From an uncultured Acidimicrobiaceae bacterium (GTDB lineage: Bacteria > Actinomycetota > Acidimicrobiia > Acidimicrobiales > UBA8592), in the NCBI GenBank assembly GCA_963716795.1, contig CAVQUE010000015.1:754069-818068 (forward strand): a DNA stretch of 64,000 nt. The letters run 5' to 3'. Made by a program: the position numbers and the translations under genes. The notes beneath the pieces are model-generated. The model saw nothing but the letters and a program-made list of their open reading frames with translations, was not told the DNA's origin and made no database searches. The stretch's first letter is position 1, and every line of letters begins with the position of its first letter. Below are positions 2,965 through 44,410 of the stretch, piece by piece.

Positions 2965-3726
2965 ATGGTGCGACTCGATGGCAAGGTGTTCGTGATCACG
3001 GGCGGCAACGGGGGCATCGGCCTCGGCATGGCCGAGGGGATCGCCGATGCCGGCGGCACCCCGGTGGTGTGGGGCCGTCGCGAGGACAAGAACGCCGAGG
3101 CGCTCGAGCGGCTCCGTGCCCGCGGCGCGATGCAGGCCCGGTCCTACGTCTGCGACGTCAGCGAGCCCGCCCAGGTCACCGAGGCCATGGACCGCACCAT
3201 CGCCGAGGCCGGGCGCCTCGATGGACTGTTCGCCAACGCCGGACGTGGCGGAACCGGGACCTCGTTTCTCGACCTGTCGCTCGACGAGTGGCGCGCCGTC
3301 ATGGCGGTCAACCTCGACGGGGTGTTCCTGTGCCTCCAGGAAGCGGCGCGTCGCCTGGTCGCCCAGGGCGAGGGCGGCAGCCTGGTCGGCGTCTCCTCGA
3401 CGTCGGCGATCCACGGGGCGGCGGGCAACGAGGCCTACGGGACCGCGAAGACCGCTGTCGTCGGCCTGGTGCGCGCGTTGGCCGTGGGCCTCGCCCGTCA
3501 CCAGGTCCGCGTCAACGCCCTGCTGCCGGGCTGGACCGTCACCGAGCTCGCGACGCCGGCGTTCGAGAACGACCGCTTTCGCGACGTGACGACGCGCCGG
3601 ACGCCGGTGCGACGATGGGCCGACCCGTCGGAGTTCCGCGAGATCGGCGCCTTCCTGGCCGATCCGAGCCTGACGTTCCACACCGGCCAGGAACTCACCG
3701 CCGACGGCGGCTACACGGTCTTCTGA
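2965..3726 (+). CDS. Short-chain dehydrogenase/reductase (FabG-like)
   Basis: MVRLDGKVFVITGGNGGIGLGMAEG (TGxxxGxG), NAG, SS..A..G....AYGTAK (YxxxK). Start at ATG 2965 inside the 2845 ORF. Confidence 0.9.
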   Translation: MVRLDGKVFVITGGNGGIGLGMAEGIADAGGTPVVWGRREDKNAEALERLRARGAMQARSYVCDVSEPAQVTEAMDRTIAEAGRLDGLFANAGRGGTGTSFLDLSLDEWRAVMAVNLDGVFLCLQEAARRLVAQGEGGSLVGVSSTSAIHGAAGNEAYGTAKTAVVGLVRALAVGLARHQVRVNALLPGWTVTELATPAFENDRFRDVTTRRTPVRRWADPSEFREIGAFLADPSLTFHTGQELTADGGYTVF

Positions 3727-5228
3727 CCCTCCGGGCCACGGGAGCTCGGCTCACCGGTCGGCGAGGTAGCCGGCGCCCAGGTCGCGTGGGTTCCGCAGCT
3801 GATGCGCTCGGGCAGCGCCACCGTGGCCACCGGCCCTGCGAGCGGCTCGGCCGCGTCGAAGATCATGCACGCCGAGCTGTCGGTGTTCATGTCCATGGTG
3901 TACGTCAGCAGGTACCCGTCGTCCTCGGCGGTCGATCCCGCTCGCGGGGCCATGACCGTCTCCGAGGCGAACACCCCGTCCGGGCAGCTCGATCACGTCT
4001 TCGCGGCCGGTCTCGACGTCGTGCTTCACGAAGCCGCCGAACCCGAACCACCCCTGCTCGGGCAGGGCGTTGTAGGCGTAGCGGTGGCGGCGCCCTCCGT
4101 GGCGGCCGTTGATCATCCCGAACTCCATCACCCGATCGGACAGCGGCGTCTCGGTGGTGGCGCCGGTGCGCAGGTCGAAGCGCCACCGGCGAGCCTCGGC
4201 CCCCATGGCGTGGAGGTCGAGGTAGCGGTAGAGGCTGGTCTGGAGATCGTCGCCGGGCTGGCGGTGCGGGCGACGGGTTGTGCTGGAAGAACCCGTCGAG
4301 GACGATCTCGTCGCCGTCTTCGTAGGCGTTGATCCAGTGCAGGACATAGGTCGGTTCGGCCTCGAACCAGCGGATCTCGTCGGTGGTGCCCCGGCGGGGC
4401 ACGATCGCGAATCGGTTCGGTTCGTCGGCGAAGAACCGCGGTGCGTAGGCGCCGGCTCGCAGTGCCTCGGGGTCCCAGAACATCGACGGCGGCGTTGAGG
4501 ATGGCGAAGTGCTCGGTGAAGGCCATGTCGTGGGGGAGCCGTGGCCCCGGCAGCGGCACGTCGATGTAGTGGACGAGCTCGCCTGCCCGGCGACACGACG
4601 CCGTAGTGCATGAACGGCGCGTCGGTGGAGTAGTTGAAGAACAGCAGCTCGCCGGTGTGCTCGTCGACCTTGGTGTGCGCCGATACGCCCTCGGCCGGGA
4701 AGCGGCCGTCCCAGGTCTCGGTGCCGAGGGTCTCGAGGGTCACCGGGTCGAGCCGGTAGAGGTCGCCGCACTGGTAGAAGCTCGTCAGCGCCACGCCGTT
4801 GTGCACCACGACGTCGGTGCTCGATGCATCCTTCATGCGGGTGCGCGCACCCCAGCCGTCGCGCCGTTTGGCCAGGCTCGGGCGCTCGGCCAACCCCGCC
4901 CACAGCGCCTCGCCCGGCCTCGAGTTCGGCCGTGAGCCCGGCCGTGCGCACGAAGCGATTGTGGTAGACGGCCTCGCCGCCCCCGAACGACAGCGAGTGC
5001 ACCATGCCGTCGCCATCGAAGGGGTGGTAGGTGCGAATCGATTCGAGCAGCGGGTTCTCGGTGTTGCGGAGGTACACGCCGTCGAGGTCGCTCGGGGATG
5101 GCCCCGTCGACATCGAGGTCCCAGGCCCGACGTTCGACGGTCTGCGGGCGCCACGGACCGCTGCGGTAGGGGTTCGTGTCGTCGTCGGGCAATGCCGACG
5201 GCAACTCGTCGAGGATCTCGACCTTCAC
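3711..5228 (-). pseudogene. Carotenoid cleavage oxygenase (RPE65/CCO family) broken by at least 5 frameshifts; either a pseudogene or uncorrected indels
   Basis: Family-typical segments lie in three different minus frames: VKVEILDELP..NPYRSGPWRPQTVE; DGVYLRNTENP..HPFDGDGMVH; VVVHNGVALTSFYQCGDLYRLDP..ELLFFNYS; LPHDMAFTEHFAILN; YVLHWINAYEDGDEIVLDG; MEFGMINGRH..GGFVKHD; EDDGYLLTYTMD..MIFDA..PVATVALPERI..GTHATW. GTG start at 5228 sits behind GGAGG. Confidence 0.85.
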
Positions 5229-19269: not shown

Positions 19270-19467
19270 ATGGACACCATGCTGAACACCTACGTCAAGC
19301 TGACCAGCGCTCTCGCCGCAATGCGTGAGCAGGAGCGTGGCGCCACCGCCGTCGAGTACGGCCTGATCGTGGCGCTCATCGCCGCCATCATCATCGGCGT
19401 CGTCGCCACCCTGGGCACCAAGGTCAACGACAACTTCCAGAAGGTCGCCAACAACATCCCCGACTGA
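19270..19467 (+). CDS. flp: Flp family type IVb pilin (prepilin)
   Basis: 65 aa. The leader ends ...REQERG, followed by ATAVEYGLIVALIAAIIIGVVA (Flp motif G/ATAVEYGL). AAGGGG sits upstream of the ATG. Confidence 0.9.
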   Translation: MDTMLNTYVKLTSALAAMREQERGATAVEYGLIVALIAAIIIGVVATLGTKVNDNFQKVANNIPD

Positions 19468-19507
19468 TCGAGATGTGACGACCGGAGGCACAGCCTCCAC
19501 CACTCGG

Positions 19508-19546
19508 AGCCGGGTCCTCTTCGGAGGGCCCGGCTTTGGTGGTTTT
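19508..19546 (+). terminator. Intrinsic terminator-like hairpin after flp
   Basis: AGCCGGGUCCUC-UUCG-GAGGGCCCGGCU: a 12-bp stem with one G-U pair and a UUCG tetraloop, followed by UUGGUGGUUUU. Confidence 0.6.
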
Positions 19547-19796
19547 CGGTTCGAGAGGAAACCGAACCTCTCGAACCGAGTTGGATTCGAGCGGCTGACG
19601 CCGCGCTGTGGCTTTCGGTTCGAGAGGAAACCGAACCTCTCGAACCGAGTTGATCGGAGCGGCTGACGCCGCGCTGTCTTGCGTGAACCGACCGAGCAAG
19701 TAGCTCGGTTCACGCTGGGGGAACCGCCGGAGGCCGTCCCCCCAGGCCCCCTCGCTGGCGGCCTCCAGGCCTCCGCGGGAACACGCCGAGCGCCCC
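19541..19796 (+). repeat. Leader modules of a composite repeat element: two 69-bp direct repeats each carrying hairpin H1, then hairpin H2 and a GC-rich connector
   Basis: Copies at 19541-19609 and 19610-19677. H1 is UCGGUUCGAGAGG-AAACCGAA-CCUCUCGAACCGA (13 bp), at 19546-19579 and 19615-19648. The conserved GAGCGGCTGACGCCGCGCTGT follows. H2 is GTGAACCGACCGAGC-AAGTA-GCTCGGTTCAC at 19683-19713. Confidence 0.8.
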
Positions 19797-20538
19797 GAGC
19801 AGGGCCGTAGTGGCCCGGGACAGGTCGGCGCTCTCCGCTGCTCCCGAGACGGCTGGGCATCCCGGTGGAGGGTTTCGGTATCCCCGTGGCCGTCTCGGCT
19901 GGTCGCTGCTGCTGCGCAGCACGCCGACACCGGCCGGCGACGTGCGCCCCGGCTCGAGCGTGCGACGAGGCCGAGCCAGGGGATCCCGGCGCGTGGGAGC
20001 CGGAGACGAGCCGGCCCAGCAACATCGCGCACCGTCCAGGGCCGCAGTGGCCCGGGACAGGTCGGCGCTCTCCGCTGCTCCCGAGACGGCTGGGCACCCC
20101 GCCAAAGGGTTTCGGCACCCCCGAGCCGTCTCGGCTGGTCGCTGCTGCTGCGCAGCACGCCGACACCGGCCGGCGACGTGCGTCCCGGCTCGAGCGTGCG
20201 ACAACCACAAACGGGGGATCCCGGCGCGTGGGCGCCGGAGACGAGCCGGTCCAGCAACACCGGGGGATCCCGGCGCGTGGGCGCCGGAGACGAGCCGGCC
20301 CAGCAACACCGCGTACCGTCCAGGGCCGCAGCGGCACGGGACAGGTCGGCGCTCCGCGCCGCTCCCCGAGACGGCTGGGCACCCCGGTGAAGGGTTTCGG
20401 TACCCCCGAGCCGTCTCGGCTCGACGCTGCTGCTGCGCAGCACGCCGACACCGGCCGGCGACGTGCGCCCCGGACAGGGCGTGAGACGAGGTCGAGCCGG
20501 GGGATCCCGGCGCGTGGGAGCCGGAGACGAGCCGGCCA
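19797..20538 (+). repeat. Tandem array of three about 235-bp GC-rich units, one carrying a 49-bp internal duplication; non-coding
   Basis: Phase markers GGATCC at 19981, 20216, 20265 and 20502. Each unit contains CCGAGACGGCTGGGCACCCC-N6-GGGTTTCGGnACCCC..GCCGTCTCGG (10-bp inverted arms), then GCTGCTGCGCAGCACGCCGACACCGGCCGGCGACGTGCG and GGATCCCGGCGCGTGGG(A/C)GCCGGAGACGAGCCGGCCCAG. Confidence 0.85.
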
Positions 20539-20655
20539 GGAGACTAGGCACTCCTTCCCATTCGGCGGGTCCGATGGCTCAACTACACCCACCGACTGCC
20601 GATTGAGGGCCCGGATGCGATGCGGGTCACGGCGACGTGCCTGCCCTCGGAGAGG

Positions 20656-21489
20656 ATGCAGATGAGACGAAGAGTGATTGCGCTCGTGGCGGCGGTTCTG
20701 CTCGCCGGCGTGGGGACGATGGTGCTGGTGGGTTTCGTGCAGAGCGCCGAAGAGCGTGCGGTCGCGGGCCAAGAGCTCGTGGCCGTCCTCCAGGTCCGTG
20801 CGGATGCGACGGTTCCCCAGGGCACATCGTCCGAAGAGATCGCCCCGTTGATCGAGGTGGTCGAGGTTCCGGCCCAGGCCAGAGCGGTCGGAGCGATCAC
20901 CGATCTGGGCGAAGTGGCCGGACTGGCCACCGCAGTGGACCTCGTGCCCGGTGAACAGCTCATCGCAGCCCGGTTCGTCGAGGCTGCAGAGGTCCAGGCC
21001 GATCGCCGTGAAGACCTTCCTCGTCGCCGGGTCGCCGTGCCCGACGGCATGCTCGAGGTGCCGATCCGCCTCGATGCCGTCAGCGCGCTGGGCGGCATCA
21101 TCGATGTCGGCGACACCGTTGCGATCGTCGCCTCGTTCGCCAACTACACCGGCGACACCCAGGGCACGGTCACCGTCGACGATCAGGTCGTCGCCGTGCC
21201 CCAGAGTGCCGGTGAGGGAGGCGCAGGCCAGGCCACCAAGATGCTGATCGAGAACGCATTGGTCATCGAGGTGCAGGCCGACACGGCACCGACGTTCGTC
21301 GACGACGCCTCTGGCGAGGTCGTCTTGGCACCTGCGTCGAACTTCCTGGTCACGTTTGCCCTCGAGCCCAACGACGTCGAGCGCCTGATCTTCGCCACCC
21401 AGTACGGCACGCTCTACCTGGCGCAGCAGACCCCCGACGATGTCGGCGAGGGCAGCATCGTCACCATCGAGAACATCTTCCGGGACTGA
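20656..21489 (+). CDS. cpaB: Flp pilus assembly protein CpaB/RcpC (SAF domain)
   Basis: N-terminal TM RRRVIALVAAVLLAGVGTMVLVGFV, then a SAF-like region (AVDLVPGEQLIAARF) and the CpaB C-terminal domain. The start may be ATG 20656 or 20662; GGAGAGG lies upstream. Confidence 0.85.
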   Translation: MQMRRRVIALVAAVLLAGVGTMVLVGFVQSAEERAVAGQELVAVLQVRADATVPQGTSSEEIAPLIEVVEVPAQARAVGAITDLGEVAGLATAVDLVPGEQLIAARFVEAAEVQADRREDLPRRRVAVPDGMLEVPIRLDAVSALGGIIDVGDTVAIVASFANYTGDTQGTVTVDDQVVAVPQSAGEGGAGQATKMLIENALVIEVQADTAPTFVDDASGEVVLAPASNFLVTFALEPNDVERLIFATQYGTLYLAQQTPDDVGEGSIVTIENIFRD

Positions 21490-38644: not shown

Positions 38645-38719
38645 CGAACCAACCCCTGTAGCCGTCGAGCGACGGCATGGTAGCCCACGACGGCGCGCCG
38701 CCGCCGGGCTCGGATGTCC

Positions 38720-39079
38720 TCACGCGGTACCGGACGGGATGCGGTCCTTCGGCCACACCGCACCTGCCCCCTCCATGGCATCGATCAGCTCCTCGAGCGG
38801 GTCGCTGCCCGCGCCGAACCCATCGGTGGCGGCGAGGTGGTCGAAGAGCACCCGCATCGCCGTGGCGAGCCCCGCAGGTTGCGGGACGTTGCGGTGCACG
38901 CACCACTCGGACAGCTCGATCCACCACAGGCGCCAGACGTCCTCCTCGGTGAAGGTCGTCGGTCCCCTGCGGACGTCGGCACACGCCAACACGACCGTCA
39001 TCGCGTCGAAGTCGCAGCACACCCCGGTGCGCAGCGCCCACCGTGCCACCGCCGGCGCGGGTGGTCCGGGCATCGACAC
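38720..39079 (-). CDS. Hypothetical protein
   Basis: 119 aa. ...TTFTEEDVWRLWWIELSEWCVHRNVPQPAGLATAMRVLFDHLAATDGF.... Coding-like bias, no family recognised. Confidence 0.45.
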   Translation of the reverse strand: MSMPGPPAPAVARWALRTGVCCDFDAMTVVLACADVRRGPTTFTEEDVWRLWWIELSEWCVHRNVPQPAGLATAMRVLFDHLAATDGFGAGSDPLEELIDAMEGAGAVWPKDRIPSGTA

Positions 39080-39203
39080 TCAACCGGGCGACATCGCGCG
39101 CTCGTCGCGCGGACGCACCCCGGGTCGGAGCGTCACCAGTGGGAACCGGGCGAAGATGTGTCGTCGTCATGGTCCCGAGTATGCGGAGGGGGTGTGACAC
39201 TCG

Positions 39204-39700
39204 TTTCTGGGCCGGCTCGTCTCCGGCGTGCTCGCGCCGGGATCCTCGGTCTGGTGACGTCGCACGGTTGGTCCGGTGTGTACGTCGCCGGCTGGTGTCG
39301 GCGTGCTGCGCAGCAGCGGCGCCGGCCGAGACGGCCACGGGGGTGCGGAAACCCTTTGTCGGGGTGCCCAGCCGTCTCGGGTGGGGCGGGAGCGCCGACG
39401 TGTCTGGGGCCGCTGTGGTGCTGGTGGTGCGCGGTGTTTCTGGGCCGGCTCGTCTCCGGCGTGCCTGGCGCCGGGATCCTTCGGGTTGGTGACGTCGCAC
39501 GGTTGGTTCCTGCTGTACGTCGCCGGCTGGTGTCGGCGTGGTGCGCAGCAGCGGCGCTGGGCCGAGTCGGCCACGGGGGTGCCCAGGTGACCCACCGGGG
39601 TGCGTCGCCGTCTCGGGGGAGGCGGGTGCGCCGACGGGTGCCGCCCGGCGGCGGCGGCCTGGCTTCGAGCGCTGTGTCCGGGCACGCGGTTGCCTGGGAG
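39204..39700 (-). repeat. Second copy, in inverted orientation, of the about 235-bp tandem unit array (about 2 units)
   Basis: GGATCC phase markers at 39240 and 39474 (234-bp period). The reverse complement aligns block-for-block with 19797-20538: GGATCCCGGCGC, CCGGAGACGAGCCGGCCCAG, CCCGAGACGGCTGGGCACCCC, GGGTTTC, CCGTCTCGG, GCTGCTGCGCAGCACGCCGACACC. The array ends at the same unit position as the left array. Confidence 0.85.
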
Positions 39701-39850
39701 CCGCCAGCGAGGGGGTCCGGGGGACGGCCTCCGGCGGTCCCCCCGGCGTGAACCGAGCTACGTGCTCGGTCGGTTCACAAGAGACAGCGCGGCGTCAGCC
39801 GCTCCTTCAGAAAACTCGCTTCGAAAGGTTCGTTTTCCTTTCGAAGCGAA
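39701..39850 (-). repeat. Leader modules of the inverted copy: connector, H2, and a single H1 hairpin
   Basis: H2 at 39748-39778, H1 at 39816-39849. On the minus strand H1 reads UCGCUUCGAAAGG-AAAACGAA-CCUUUCGAAGCGA (13 bp), followed by GUUUUCU. It starts 8 nt after the stop of the upstream minus-strand gene. Confidence 0.8.
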
Positions 39851-39857
39851 ACCCCCC

Positions 39858-40851
39858 TCAGTCCGCCGCGGCGAGTTCGTAGACATCGGGGGCGACGGCG
39901 CCGATCAGTTCGCCTTCGACGACGACATCGACCTGATCGACGGCGAAGGACGCCCGGGCCAGGGTCACCGTCATGGCGGCATCGGTGTCCGGCCCGGCGA
40001 AGGTCAGACTGCATCGGCCGGCCCGGCGCAGGTGGGCGCCGGTGATCGTCGATGGATGCGGGCGAGCGCGCCGTTCCACGGCGAGCCCGATCCCGACCTC
40101 GGCCACGCGGCAGGGCTTGTCCGGGTCGAGGCGTTCGAGCTCGAACCGCAGCGTGTCCGCGTCGGCGTTGTCGCCGAGGAGGTCGACGACCCGTCCGCTC
40201 GACACCTCGAGGCGGACCGGCGACCGCACGACGGTCGCCTCGAGCAGGTCGCCCGGCATCAGGACCACGGTGCCGTTGACGATGTCGGCGCGAGGCTCGC
40301 AGCCACACGAGGCCGCCCGGCCAGACACCGTGGTCGCCCGTCTCGGTGGCGATCACCGCCGGGGCGCTGCTGGTCGCACCCGTGAGGCCGATGTCGACGA
40401 TGGTGCCGGCGGCGGACGACAACACAGCCGACCCGCCGTCTGCGACGAGTTCGGCGGCACGCTCGATGCGACGCATCGAGCCCGGATGCGCCACGAGCGT
40501 GTCGAGATCGGTCGTCGTCGGGCATCGATGGACAACAGGCGTGCCACCTCGAGGATCGCCTCGCGGGCCGACGAGGCCGCGACACGACCGGTCAGGTCGA
40601 TGACCAGTGCCGCACTGGTCAGGGCCGCCCGCATCACCGGCGCTGCGATGGGATCGTCGCGATCGATCGCCCCGTGCGGGGTCGACACCGGTGTGAGCGA
40701 GGCACCCAGACGTTCGCCGACGATGACGAACACCTCGGCAACCGAGGGGTCGACGCCGATCGTCGAGGACGAGGGCGATCTGCTCGCCCGGGGTCACCGC
40801 GCACAACTCCAGCTGTCGGGTGACCGTTTCGATACGCCGCCAGGTGCTGAT
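39858..40851 (-). pseudogene. M29-aminopeptidase / NicX-like family protein, interrupted by at least 2 frameshifts; family call tentative and start uncertain
   Basis: Pieces lie in three minus frames: WRRIETVTRQLELCAVTPGEQIALVLDD; FVIVGERLGASLTPVST..VMRAALTSAALVIDLTG; ...LVADGGSAVLSSAAGTIVDIGLTG; NGTVVLMPGDLLEATV..RVAEVGIGLA..VVVEGELI. GAGGAGG precedes an ATC at 40851, and no clean ATG is present. Confidence 0.5.
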
Positions 40852-41002
40852 GGTCGGCCTCCTCGTCGCCGGGTCAGGCCTCTCCGAGAAGGCCGATCGC
40901 GCCTCACCGTACCGTCGCGTCGGTTCGCCGTGGCTCCATCCGTTGTTCACCAACTCGTGGGCTGTAGCGTCGTGGTCGGTGGAGTCGGTTGGCTGTGGTC
41001 GC

Positions 41003-41851
41003 ATGGGGTGCTCAGAACCCTCGGTGTCGGTCCTGCTCATCGCGCCCCAGGACCAACAGGCCTGGCTCGTCGGACCCGGCCACGAGGCCGCACTCGATGG
41101 CGTCCCGCTGTGCGCGGCACACGCAGATCGCGTCACCGTTCCCTTCGGCTGGCAGCTGCATGATGACCGCCCGGCTGCTCAAGCCCCGCCGACGTCGCAG
41201 GAGCACGCCCCGTAAGGCGAAGGCCGACGCCCGAGCCGGATCAGTCCGACGGCGACGCGTCGGGCCCCGATGCGGATTCGTCGGCCACGGGCGGTGGCTC
41301 GCGCAAGGTCGACGCCGGTCGAGCCGGCGAAGCCGGCATCCACAGTGGGCGATGATGCCCCTCGACGAACCCCTGCCGGCAAACTCCCTCCGACACACGC
41401 CAGGCCGACAAACCCTCGGTCGAGGAACAGTCGCCCGATCCTGCGGTCGTCGACCCGGTCGCGGCGGCCACGTCTGCGGCGTCCGACGACACCGATTCGG
41501 CGGTCGCGGCGTCGCCGGACACCGGTGCCGAGTCCGACGCACCGCCGGCCCGGCCCGACAGCGACGGGCCACGCGCCGCCGACGGCGCCGGTCACGGCCG
41601 AGCCGCACGCCGGCGTTCGCCACCATGCCCCCGCCGATGTTCCGGTCCACGCCGACGAGGTCGCCGCAGCCGTCGCCGGCTCCGGGGTCCGTCTGTCGGT
41701 CGTGCCGGGTGATGACGACCCGACCAAGACCTTCAGCGTCGAGGCCGATGGGCAGACGTCGCTGTGGGCCGAGAGCCACCGCGACGACCACGATCCGAGC
41801 GACGAGACGCCGCTGCTCAAGCGCGCCTTTCGCGTCGTGCGCGAAGACTGA
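41003..41851 (+). pseudogene. DUF3499-family protein, interrupted by an in-frame TAA at 41213 and frame changes in the acidic linker
   Basis: N-terminus MGCSEPSVSVLLIAPQDQQAWLVGPG....LCAAHADRVTVPFGWQLHDDR matches the DUF3499 pattern. The C-terminus ends ...DETPLLKRAFRVV. The middle segment reads sensibly only in another frame (ADKPSVEEQSPDPAVVDPVAAATSAASDDTDS...). Confidence 0.55.
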
Positions 41852-42736: not shown

Positions 42737-44410
42737 TGACAGACAGCCCCGAGCCGGCGCGCACCGGCGCACGCCCGCAGCCAGACGACCGACGAGGCAC
42801 GACCGCTGTGGCTGGTGGCGCTCATCGCCGTCGTGGCGATCGCCGTCGTCGGTGTCGGTACCTTCGCCTCGCTGCGCAGCGACGACAGCGACGAGCCCGT
42901 GGAGACCGCTGTCGGTGCGCGCCGGGACCGTGGCCGAGGCGGACAGCGGTGATGGTGCATGCCGGCCAGGGGGTCGACGCCGGGGGCGATGATGCGACTG
43001 CCACCGCCGCGCCCGAGCCCACCGCTGCGCCCGAGCCCACTGCGACCTCGAACCGGAGCCGACGCCCACGCCGTTCGCCGGCCTCGTCGACCCGGCCTCG
43101 GTCGGACGCCCGTACGGCGACACCGTCGACGGGCTCCTGACCTTCCGCGGCAATCCGACCCGGACCTTCTACGGCATCGGCCCGGTGCCCGCCTCGCCGT
43201 CGTTGCAGTGGTCCTACCCACCCGGTGGCGGGCTGTGTGGCCCGTCGACCGTCGGCGGCGAGACCACCCAGTGGTGCGGAACCGGCTGGACGGGCCAGCC
43301 CGCGATCTTCGAACGCGACGGCCGCACCTGGGCGGTCTTCGGTGCCTACGACCACGACGTCCACTTCCTCGATGCCGACACCGGCGAGCAGATCCTGCCG
43401 CCGTTCCCGACCGGCGACATCATCAAGGGCAGCGTCACCGTCGATCCCGACGGCTACCCCATCGTCTACTCGGGGTCGCGTGACGACTACTTCCACCTGA
43501 TCGCCATCGACCGTGACGAACCGGTCGAACTCTGGCGTCTCGACGCCGACGCCCCCGGGGCCGAGTGGAACAACGACTGGGACGGCTCTGCGCTGATCCT
43601 CGACGACTACCTGTTCCAGGGCGGCGAGAACTCGGTGTTCCACGTGGTGAAGCTGAACCGGGGCTACGACGACGACGGGCTTCGTCACGGTCGACCCCGA
43701 GGTGGTGTTCACGGCACCGGGCTACGACGCCGACCTGCTCGCCGCCGTCGGACCCAACGTCTCCATCGAGAACTCGGTGGCCGTCAGCGGCAACGTCGTC
43801 TACTTCGCGAACTCGGGCGGTCTCGTGCAGGGCTGGCGCGTCGGGGGCCTCGATCGGGGCCGCGAACCCAAGCGGGTGTTCCGCTACTGGGTCGGCGACG
43901 ACGTCGACGCCTCGATCGTCGATCGACGACGAGGGCTTCCTCTACGTCGGCGCCGAGTACGAGCGGGGCAACAGCCGCTCTCAAGAGATCGGCCAGCTCG
44001 TCAAGCTGAACCCGCGCAAGAAGAACGACCCGCTCGTGTGGTCGGTGTTCGACACCGGCGCGCTCCCCGGTGGTATCTGGGCCACACCGGCGCTACACGA
44101 GGACCTGATCATCGCCCCCACCGACTCCGGACGCCTCCTCGGCGTCGACCGCGCCACCGGCGACATCCGTTGGGAGTTCCGGCTGCCCGGACCGTTGTGG
44201 AGCTCGCCGGTCGTCGTCGACGACGTGCTGCTGCAGGGCGACTGCGAGGGCGCCCTCCATGCCTACGACCTGAGCGACACCACGGTCGAGCCGCCACCGC
44301 TGTGGACGGTGTCGCTGACCGGTTGCATCGAGTCGACGCCTGCGGTGTGGGACGGCCGCATCGTCTTCGGAACGCGGGCGGGTCAGGTCCACATGCTGGG
44401 CGATTCATGA
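42737..44410 (+). pseudogene. Membrane-anchored PQQ-like beta-propeller repeat protein, interrupted by at least 4 frameshifts
   Basis: TM segment LWLVALIAVVAIAVVGVGTF, a PEPTAAPEPT linker, then propeller segments in three frames: GWTGQPAIFERDGRTWAVFGAYDHDVHFLDADTGE; VVFTAPGYDADLL..VYFANSGGLVQGW; IDDEGFLYVGAEY..LLGVDRATGDIRWEF..VLLQGDCEGALHAYD..GRIVFGTRAGQVHML. Confidence 0.7.

Follow-up and report, generated by a model that had tools for sequence, protein, structure and literature searches.

Hairpin-headed tandem repeats in an Acidimicrobiales genome: copies of a probable dispersed and modular family of intergenic elements

Positions 39204-39850 of a 64,000-nucleotide stretch of contig CAVQUE010000015.1 from an uncultured Acidimicrobiaceae bacterium (the whole stretch being referred to hereafter as the window) are occupied by a structured intergenic element, another copy of which lies about 19 kb to the left in the opposite orientation, between the pilus genes flp and cpaB. 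The element at 39204-39850 is probably (at a rough probability of 0.6) one copy of a lineage-specific, dispersed and modular family of intergenic repeats, distributed within a genus-level clade of Acidimicrobiales and comparable in kind to the REP/BIME, BOX or MIRU repeats of other bacteria. The family itself is new, although it belongs to a well-known type of intergenic repeat, and it is not a switch reserved for the pilus genes.

The two copies of the window, embedded in high-GC DNA (about 70%), are built in the same way. In a pairwise alignment, the reverse complement of 39171-39860 aligns collinearly, module by module, with 19545-20540, and the motif CCGGAGACGAGCCGGCCCAG, which terminates the repeat units, closes both arrays (20521-20540 on the left, 39207-39226 on the right). 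A preliminary description of this DNA had indeed recognized 39204-39850 as a second, inverted copy ending at the same unit position. The shared order comprises a hairpin H1, the 21-mer GAGCGGCTGACGCCGCGCTGT, two further hairpins H2 and H3, a C-rich tail or connector, and finally units of ~235 nt. The window contains the 21-mer at three places (19589+, 19657+, 39784-), compared with 0.01 expected by chance, and CCGGAGACGAGCCGGCCCAG at six, compared with 0.07 expected, while the 87 nt covering H2 and H3 are 93% identical between the left and the right copy. According to TRF and nhmmer, the left array consists of three units plus a 49-nt partial duplicate and the right array of two units, which had been described as 234-bp repeats but actually measure 237 and 233 nt. 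A protein-coding tandem repeat was rejected because the sequence displays no codon periodicity and the units, 232-238 nt in length, vary by indels and do not contain a whole number of codons; the plot of G+C content at third codon positions (GC3) is flat over 19470-20560 and 39200-39850 and reaches 0.85-0.97 in the flanking genes. A miniature inverted-repeat transposable element of the type bounded by terminal inverted repeats was rejected as well, all inverted repeats being internal hairpins and none of them joining the 39850 end to the 39204 end.

Outside the window, an exact scan for the 21-mer with one genome per species returned 16 loci (loci and contigs retrieved from other genomes are designated by L numbers), ten of which reside on different contigs of a single metagenome-assembled genome (MAG), Acidimicrobiales Ske_MAG14, whereas others belong to Aquihabitans sp. 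McL0605 and Acidimicrobiales RYN_37. Ske_MAG14 carries at least 11 further copies. The matches in L004, L013, L015 and L016 look like chance or unrelated occurrences, e.g., inside a GGDEF gene, and were discarded. With respect to L015, the exact 21-mer is located in intergenic DNA of a Rhodobacteraceae MAG (547-721) and seemingly the same sequence is found on a JGI metagenome contig (L017, 1390-1564); the weak additional similarity of both to the tail of the element (nhmmer E 2e-5) is probably fortuitous. No match was obtained by blastn among the PLSDB plasmids, the 21-mer was not found in IMG/VR, and a scan of JGI metagenomes with the 21-mer gave five matches, all of them in unrelated coding or alphaproteobacterial sequence. 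Likewise, no Rfam 15 family matched any part of the window at the gathering thresholds, the best sub-threshold match being asX4 with 25 bits against a threshold of 100, and a full-text literature search disclosed no intergenic repeat family for Acidimicrobiia.

Depending on the locus, the family assembles three modules in different numbers. Module A, present in one or two copies, consists of H1, a U-rich GAGUU tail and the 21-nt mini-hairpin corresponding to the 21-mer, and is doubled in the left copy of the window and in L002, L003 and L012. Module B consists of H2, H3 and the tail, and module C of 0-5 tandem GC-rich units of ~235 nt ending at CCGGAGACGAGCCGGCCCAG. The copies of Ske_MAG14 have the H2-H3-tail stretch in common and range from the head only, devoid of any unit, to five units. 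In Aquihabitans and RYN_37, module A is shared and a different sequence follows. The core of H3, CCGCCGGAGGCCGTCCC, occurs in 14 of 14 heads. In Ske_MAG14, a second type of head, made of a 24-bp perfect palindrome GTTTGTGACGAGTTTGCACAGCCG...CGGCTGTGCAAACTCGTCACAAAC, also precedes unit arrays (L009 3262-3335; L010 4047-4093).

The hairpins of the head are maintained as structures. H1 reads TCGGTTCGAGAGG/CCTCTCGAACCGA in the left copies and TCGCTTCGAAAGG/CCTTTCGAAGCGA in the right one, both being perfect stems of 13 bp; in the 5' arm G is replaced by C at position 4 and by A at position 10, and on the 3' arm C is replaced by T and C by G, so that both differences are compensated, exactly as announced in the preliminary description, and a single further difference between left and right falls in the loop. 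The right version TCGCTTCGAAAGG recurs at other loci, L009 and L012, and the two versions are alleles of the family which occur elsewhere, not compensatory mutations that arose locally. Across the family, H1 exists as the perfect palindrome of the window, as a short stem with a pyrimidine-rich loop of ~29 nt, or as a 12-bp stem in L022, and several of these versions keep the frame TTCG...CGAGUU. Similarly, the mini-hairpin reads GCGGC-TGAC-GCCGC, or CGGCC-TGAC-GGCCG in L022, with an unchanged TGAC loop, and H2 is perfectly paired in all its versions, namely GTGAACCGA/TCGGTTCAC in both copies of the window, GTCTGCCGA/TCGGCAGAC in all the copies of Ske_MAG14 and TCGGTCGA/TCGACCGA in L022. When the mini-hairpin, H2 and H3 of 13 heads are considered together, 95.4% of the cells are paired, compared with 37-55% for slid partners, and six pairs have changed on both sides, compared with 1.6 +/- 1.0 in shuffled data, none of the 500 shuffles reaching six. 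These values bear out the earlier suggestion that the stems are under structural maintenance. The hairpin versions are specific to each genome, even at the orthologous flp-cpaB locus, which suggests that the copies within a genome evolve in concert or are replaced.

The ~235-nt units behave differently from the heads in this respect: the heads stay paired whereas the units show almost no covariation. Within an array, where they are homogenized, the units are 87-88% identical, and 67-79% identical between the two loci of the window; between loci and genomes, orthologous and paralogous units share 72-80% identity, with invariant blocks tens of nucleotides long. Four-fold degenerate sites are only 58% identical between the genome of the window and Ske_MAG14, and the units, being more alike than these sites, are either constrained or homogenized. 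The invariant blocks are largely complementary to each other (GTCGGCG/CGCCGAC, CCGAGACGGC/GCCGTCTCGG, GCTGC/GCAGC, GCCGGC..ACG/CGA.GCCGGC and CCGGC/GCCGG), hardly any of these pairs varies, and the variable stretches fall in predicted loops. A consensus fold computed with RNAalifold was not retained, because it varies from one sequence set to another and fits both strands equally well, with almost no covariation. Unequal recombination would lengthen and shorten the arrays. The 49-nt partial duplication in the left array, located between units 2 and 3 at 20255-20303, repeats a unit end (GGGGGATCCCGGCGCGTGGGCGCCGGAGACGAGCCGG.CCAGCAACAC), and the arrays of L010, L022, L023 and L030 end in comparable short duplications of GAGCCGGCCCAGAAAC.

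The family occupies a regular position relative to genes, which were called with a codon-usage model trained on the retrieved loci, the orthologous flp-cpaB copies being counted once. Each of the 11 independent sites has the head behind a gene of the same orientation, and two copies reduced to module A obey the same rule. An apparent exception, L010, is in fact preceded by a co-oriented Cof/HAD-like open reading frame (ORF) that the gene caller had missed. This ORF (about 3240-4348) has no stop codon before the element and reads ~100 codons into it; either the native stop has been displaced by the element or the assembly is in error. In L012, two copies separated by 300 bp face each other, each of them in sense with its own convergent gene, which indicates that the orientation bias tracks transcription and cannot be explained by the direction of replication. 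Of the 13 junctions that were read, 9 have the first module beginning 0-3 nt past the stop codon. The proposal that the element starts a few nucleotides after a stop codon at both loci of the window is correct for the right copy, which begins 6 nt after the TGA of the gene at 39858, but not for the left copy, which begins 78 nt past the stop of flp, behind a separate hairpin (19504-19539). As for direction, the element was expected to point along transcription towards the next co-directional gene: it is indeed always in sense with the upstream gene, but the gene downstream is co-directional at about half of the sites and convergent at the others, where the array extends right up to the stop codon of the opposing gene. 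In either case the copies occupy the spacer as far as the neighbouring gene. This pattern is the signature of a 3'-end element and not of an intercistronic device, and the strict sense orientation argues that the element is read as RNA, or at least selected through transcription.

The two loci of the window were also compared with those of relatives. Syntenic relatives of the left locus were reached via homologs of CpaB. In L022 (CpaB 90% identical) and on contig 38 of Ske_MAG14 (88%), the element is inserted in a flp-cpaB spacer of 0.87-1.06 kb, and four short-read contigs of related populations (L024, L029, L030 and L031; first 150-490 nt) end inside the array upstream of cpaB, as expected for contigs that break within a multi-copy repeat. 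The flp-cpaB array is retained in all the close relatives examined. In L025 and L027, more distant relatives (CpaB 56%) with the same Lhr-flp-cpaB-tadZ-tadA order, the spacer contains a second flp and is devoid of the element. A hairpin directly after the first flp and a motif of ~33 nt before cpaB are present whether or not the element is there, which identifies the element as a lineage-specific insertion between pre-existing signals. For the right locus, a single ortholog was found (68% identical), on L028, where the same two genes are separated by a spacer of 85 nt without the element. The C-terminus of the upstream protein and the stretch GTGTCACACCCC...ATGACGACGACA are conserved on either side of the spacer; the 56 nt that precede the conserved GTGTCACACC in L028 are unrecognizable in the window, in which only 6 nt of spacer are left at either end of the element. 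No target-site duplication is visible when the window is compared with L028, the divergence (68% amino-acid identity) being too high for such a comparison.

With regard to function, the head probably acts as a terminator or a 3'-end protector. The element would be transcribed as the 3' untranslated region (3' UTR) of the gene upstream, and its hairpins, above all H1 together with the U-rich tail, could act in the RNA as a terminator and/or as a barrier to 3' exonucleases. The restriction of the family to sense-oriented copies would be accounted for by such a role at the RNA level. The right H1 followed by UUUUCUG, read in the same orientation as the upstream gene, passes a terminator scan, with 14 pairs and then TTTTCTGAAG, and the H1 of L022, which is followed by a similar tail, GAGTTTTCTGTT, is terminator-like as well. 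The two left copies of H1 and most heads of Ske_MAG14 are followed only by GAGTTGGATT or GAGTTTGATT and fail the scan.

Dispersed repeats of a comparable kind are known from several bacterial groups. Like the present family, the REP/BIME elements of Enterobacteria and Pseudomonas are dispersed extragenic hairpin repeats located at the 3' ends of transcription units, where they form mosaics of several motif types and lie between co-directional or convergent genes and not in promoter regions. REP/BIME elements stabilize the upstream mRNA and aid termination. However, REP units measure about 35 nt, have GT[AG]G as their conserved head and are associated with RAYT transposases, whereas the family described here has no sequence similarity to them, much larger modules, a tandem unit of ~235 nt and a strict sense start at the stop codon. 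Its hairpins are 31-46 nt long and its modules begin with (T)TTCG..., in contrast to the GT[AG]G of the 20-40-nt REP palindromes, and no RAYT (IS200-like TnpA) was found in the annotated parts of the 64-kb window and of the 8-20-kb pieces of relatives. The BOX elements of Streptococcus pneumoniae are also composed of three modules, the middle or terminal one being repeated in tandem a variable number of times, and are dispersed, intergenic and predicted to form stable RNA structures. They differ by a boxB of about 45 nt instead of a ~235-nt unit, by their occurrence in Firmicutes, by unrelated sequences, and by their frequent location near the 5' ends of genes in either orientation. The mycobacterial interspersed repetitive units (MIRU), an actinobacterial family, are likewise intergenic tandem repeats found inside operons, oriented with transcription and variable in copy number between strains, but they are 46-101 nt long and contain short ORFs overlapping the neighbouring stop and start codons, whereas the present units lack a reading frame and are preceded by hairpin heads. 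Finally, TRIT, which was described together with RNIE, is reportedly a conserved terminator-like repeat of mycobacteria, located in sense downstream of many genes and proposed to be an intrinsic terminator. It has in common with the present family a structured, sequence-conserved sense repeat downstream of many genes of a high-GC actinobacterium; it differs as a single short motif without modules or tandem units, the sequence comparison made here being the negative Rfam scan.

What sets the present family apart from other REP- or BOX-like repeats is its strict sense orientation from the stop codon, a core of 21 nt that does not vary from genus to genus, hairpins that differ in sequence between genomes with the pairing kept perfect, and long tandem units conserved in blocks. 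In high-GC Actinomycetota, where canonical intrinsic terminators are regarded as uncommon, the family is well suited to asking whether repeats of this sort serve as portable terminators or as 3'-UTR stabilizers. It also has practical consequences, in that short-read assemblies break at the element and spurious ORFs are predicted across it by gene callers. A public gene call of 275 aa without Pfam match spans the element in L022 (9089-9916, minus strand) and is almost certainly spurious, stop codons being scarce in this high-GC repeat DNA; comparable ORFs occur in the window at 19424-20551 and 38714-39751.

Several observations weigh against the interpretation of the family as a repeat acting at the 3' ends of transcripts. 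One array of Ske_MAG14 (L009 3430-3817), headed by the palindromic type of head, is antisense to both neighbouring genes. The left copies of H1 lack a T-tract and are placed behind flp's own terminator, which implies that termination is not their main role at that locus. More generally, the orientation bias is the only feature of the sequences that points to a role at the RNA level. The covariation reflects a small number of independent events, in essence the three versions specific to individual genomes, and perfect palindromes can be regenerated by template switching within the hairpin or by gene conversion, in the absence of any selection on RNA. The stems are nearly all of the Watson-Crick type, so that the asymmetry between G-U and A-C pairs picks no strand, and three imperfect copies of H3 would pair better on the opposite strand. 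The choice of a strand by folding energy was abandoned as uninformative, the G-rich complement folding more stably through its composition alone. In addition, nothing comparable to the ~235-nt units is known from REP, BIME or BOX elements, and a fold has not been demonstrated for them.

The main alternative is a purely selfish mobile element acting at the DNA level and devoid of any host function, the hairpins of which would be recognized by a transposase working on single-stranded or cruciform DNA, in the manner of IS200/IS605 or RAYT-REP systems, or by another enzyme. Its sense-only orientation and its abutment to stop codons would then reflect the choice of the target or selection against harmful insertions. 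This explanation, which we regard as possible though on balance unlikely, would account for the many nearly identical copies in one genome, for hairpin versions that differ between genomes even at the orthologous flp-cpaB locus, as if by concerted evolution or turnover, for a 21-mer that is exact across genera while its flanks differ, as would a recognition site, for the presence or absence of the element among relatives, for perfect Watson-Crick stems without a strand-specific G-U signal, and for starts 0-3 nt after stop codons, which suggest a target preference. It has to contend with the lack of a transposase, RAYT or integrase near any copy examined (in the 64 kb of the window and the 8-20-kb pieces of relatives), of terminal inverted repeats and of a visible target-site duplication, with the convergent copies of L012, the orientation of which follows transcription and not replication, and with the persistence of the flp-cpaB array and its conserved blocks though silent sites are nearly saturated. 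A reading more distinctly unlikely, in our opinion, makes the family a host-domesticated 3'-UTR system, in which module A would provide a movable cassette for termination or processing, recognized by a specific protein, and the units a new two-domain structured RNA arranged in tandem arrays; behind selected genes such as flp, these arrays might serve as exonuclease-resistant stabilizers or as sponges for proteins or RNA.

The preliminary description had favoured either an intercistronic RNA element or a structured non-coding RNA (ncRNA) array, and neither proposal fares well. A locus-specific device (attenuator, processing or stability element) that would set the flp:cpaB ratio, and act likewise at the right locus, agrees with the location of both window copies between co-directional genes, pointing with transcription, with the conservation of the flp-cpaB array in all close relatives and with the terminator-like character of the right H1. 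The dispersal of the element largely refutes it: the same element occurs behind unrelated genes throughout Ske_MAG14, facing convergent genes in about half of the cases, and is absent from relatives with the same tad operon, in which the flp terminator and the motif upstream of cpaB are already conserved, while the right locus functions without it in L028. We accordingly hold this device to be very improbable. Just as little credit, or slightly less, is given to the idea that each ~235-nt unit is an independent structured ncRNA or domain, the arrays being tandem ncRNA genes or multi-domain scaffolds. Nearly all the invariant blocks of the units are mutually complementary with the variable stretches in predicted loops, one lineage of units in L009 displays two compensated changes in two stems, and conservation lies well above the level of silent sites. 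However, compensation affects only one or two of the 33-49 predicted pairs, so that covariation lends no support to a defined fold; the consensus depends on which sequences are included and favours neither strand, no Rfam family matches and no promoter-like sites were found, one array is antisense to its neighbours, and many copies of the family carry no units at all. The dispersed 3'-end repeat family consequently remains the preferred interpretation of both window copies, the coordinates of which are collected in Table 1 together with those of the neighbouring genes.

Table 1. Modules of the right and left copies of the repeat and adjacent genes, in window coordinates.
Feature	Position	Strand	Remarks
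Hairpin H1, module A, right	39805..39850	-	arms 39816-39828 and 39837-39849; 13 bp perfect; 8-nt loop
U-rich tail GAGUUUUCUGAAG of right H1	within 39805..39850	-	counted in module A
21-mer GAGCGGCTGACGCCGCGCTGT, module A, right	39784..39804	-	mini-hairpin GCGGC-TGAC-GCCGC
Hairpin H2, module B, right	39748..39778	-	GTGAACCGA...TCGGTTCAC
Hairpin H3, module B, right	39717..39746	-	CCGGGGGGAC C GCC GGA GGC C GTCCCCCGG
Module B tail and connector, right	39677..39716	-	ACCCCCTCGCTGGCGGCTCCCAGGCAACCGCG...
Module C unit 1, right array	39440..39676	-	237 nt; nhmmer and alignment
Module C unit 2, right array	39207..39439	-	233 nt; ends in CCGGAGACGAGCCGGCCCAG
Gene preceding right element, 3' part	39858..40328	-	stop TGA 39858-39860; GC3 periodicity, translation
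Gene following right element	38720..39170	-	ATG 39170, 33 nt past array
Module A, left, two tandem copies	19546..19677	+	68-nt period
Module A parts, left		+	H1 19546-19579, 21-mer 19589-19609; H1 19614-19647, 21-mer 19657-19677
Module B, left	19683..19782	+	H2 19683-19713, H3 19715-19745, tail, connector
Module C, left	19783..20540	+	units 19783-20019, 20020-20254, 20304-20540; partial duplicate 20255-20303
flp pilin gene preceding left element	19270..19467	+	Pfam Flp_Fap, E 1.2e-16
Terminator-like hairpin and T-tract of flp, outside the repeat	19504..19549	+	
cpaB, gene following left element	20662..21489	+	Pfam RcpC; P0001 100% identical over 275 aa

Protein P0044 is encoded by the gene immediately before the right copy; its ortholog in L028 (P0045, 68% identical) ends with the same C-terminus ...VYELAAAD*. 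The start of the gene that follows was deduced from the ortholog at L028 458-907 and from the conserved GTGTCACACCCC...ATGACGACGACA upstream of it. Judged against the L028 ortholog and the GC3 signal, both genes (38720-39170 and 39858-41136, minus strand) shift frame internally, near 39080 and 40330, respectively, which points either to indel errors of the long-read assembly or to pseudogenes. Split genes are also encountered in L022 and L025.

At the left locus, the terminator-like hairpin of flp is kept in L022 and L023, and a hairpin occupies the same place after the first flp in L025 and L027. The ~33-nt motif upstream of cpaB, GGCTCAACTACACCCACCGACTGCCGATTGAGG, is located at 20577-20609 and kept in all the relatives, including the element-free L025 and L027; it is probably a leader or operator of cpaB independent of the repeat. 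The 19 kb between the two copies contain tad genes, an ABC/FtsX pair, a two-component system, and genes for a peroxiredoxin, a cyclophilin and a LysM protein, with neither an integrase nor a transposase among them. A composite transposon or island bounded by the inverted copies was rejected, these 19 kb carrying no mobility genes and the left half being syntenic in relatives. A Flp pilin identity for the small ORFs at 42815, 46542 and 47266 was likewise dismissed for want of Pfam support. Elsewhere in the family, a ParD/RHH-like antitoxin ORF and another small ORF, which may encode the toxin partner (both judged by eye), directly follow a head-only copy of Ske_MAG14 (L009 262-824, minus strand), and further units lie beyond them.

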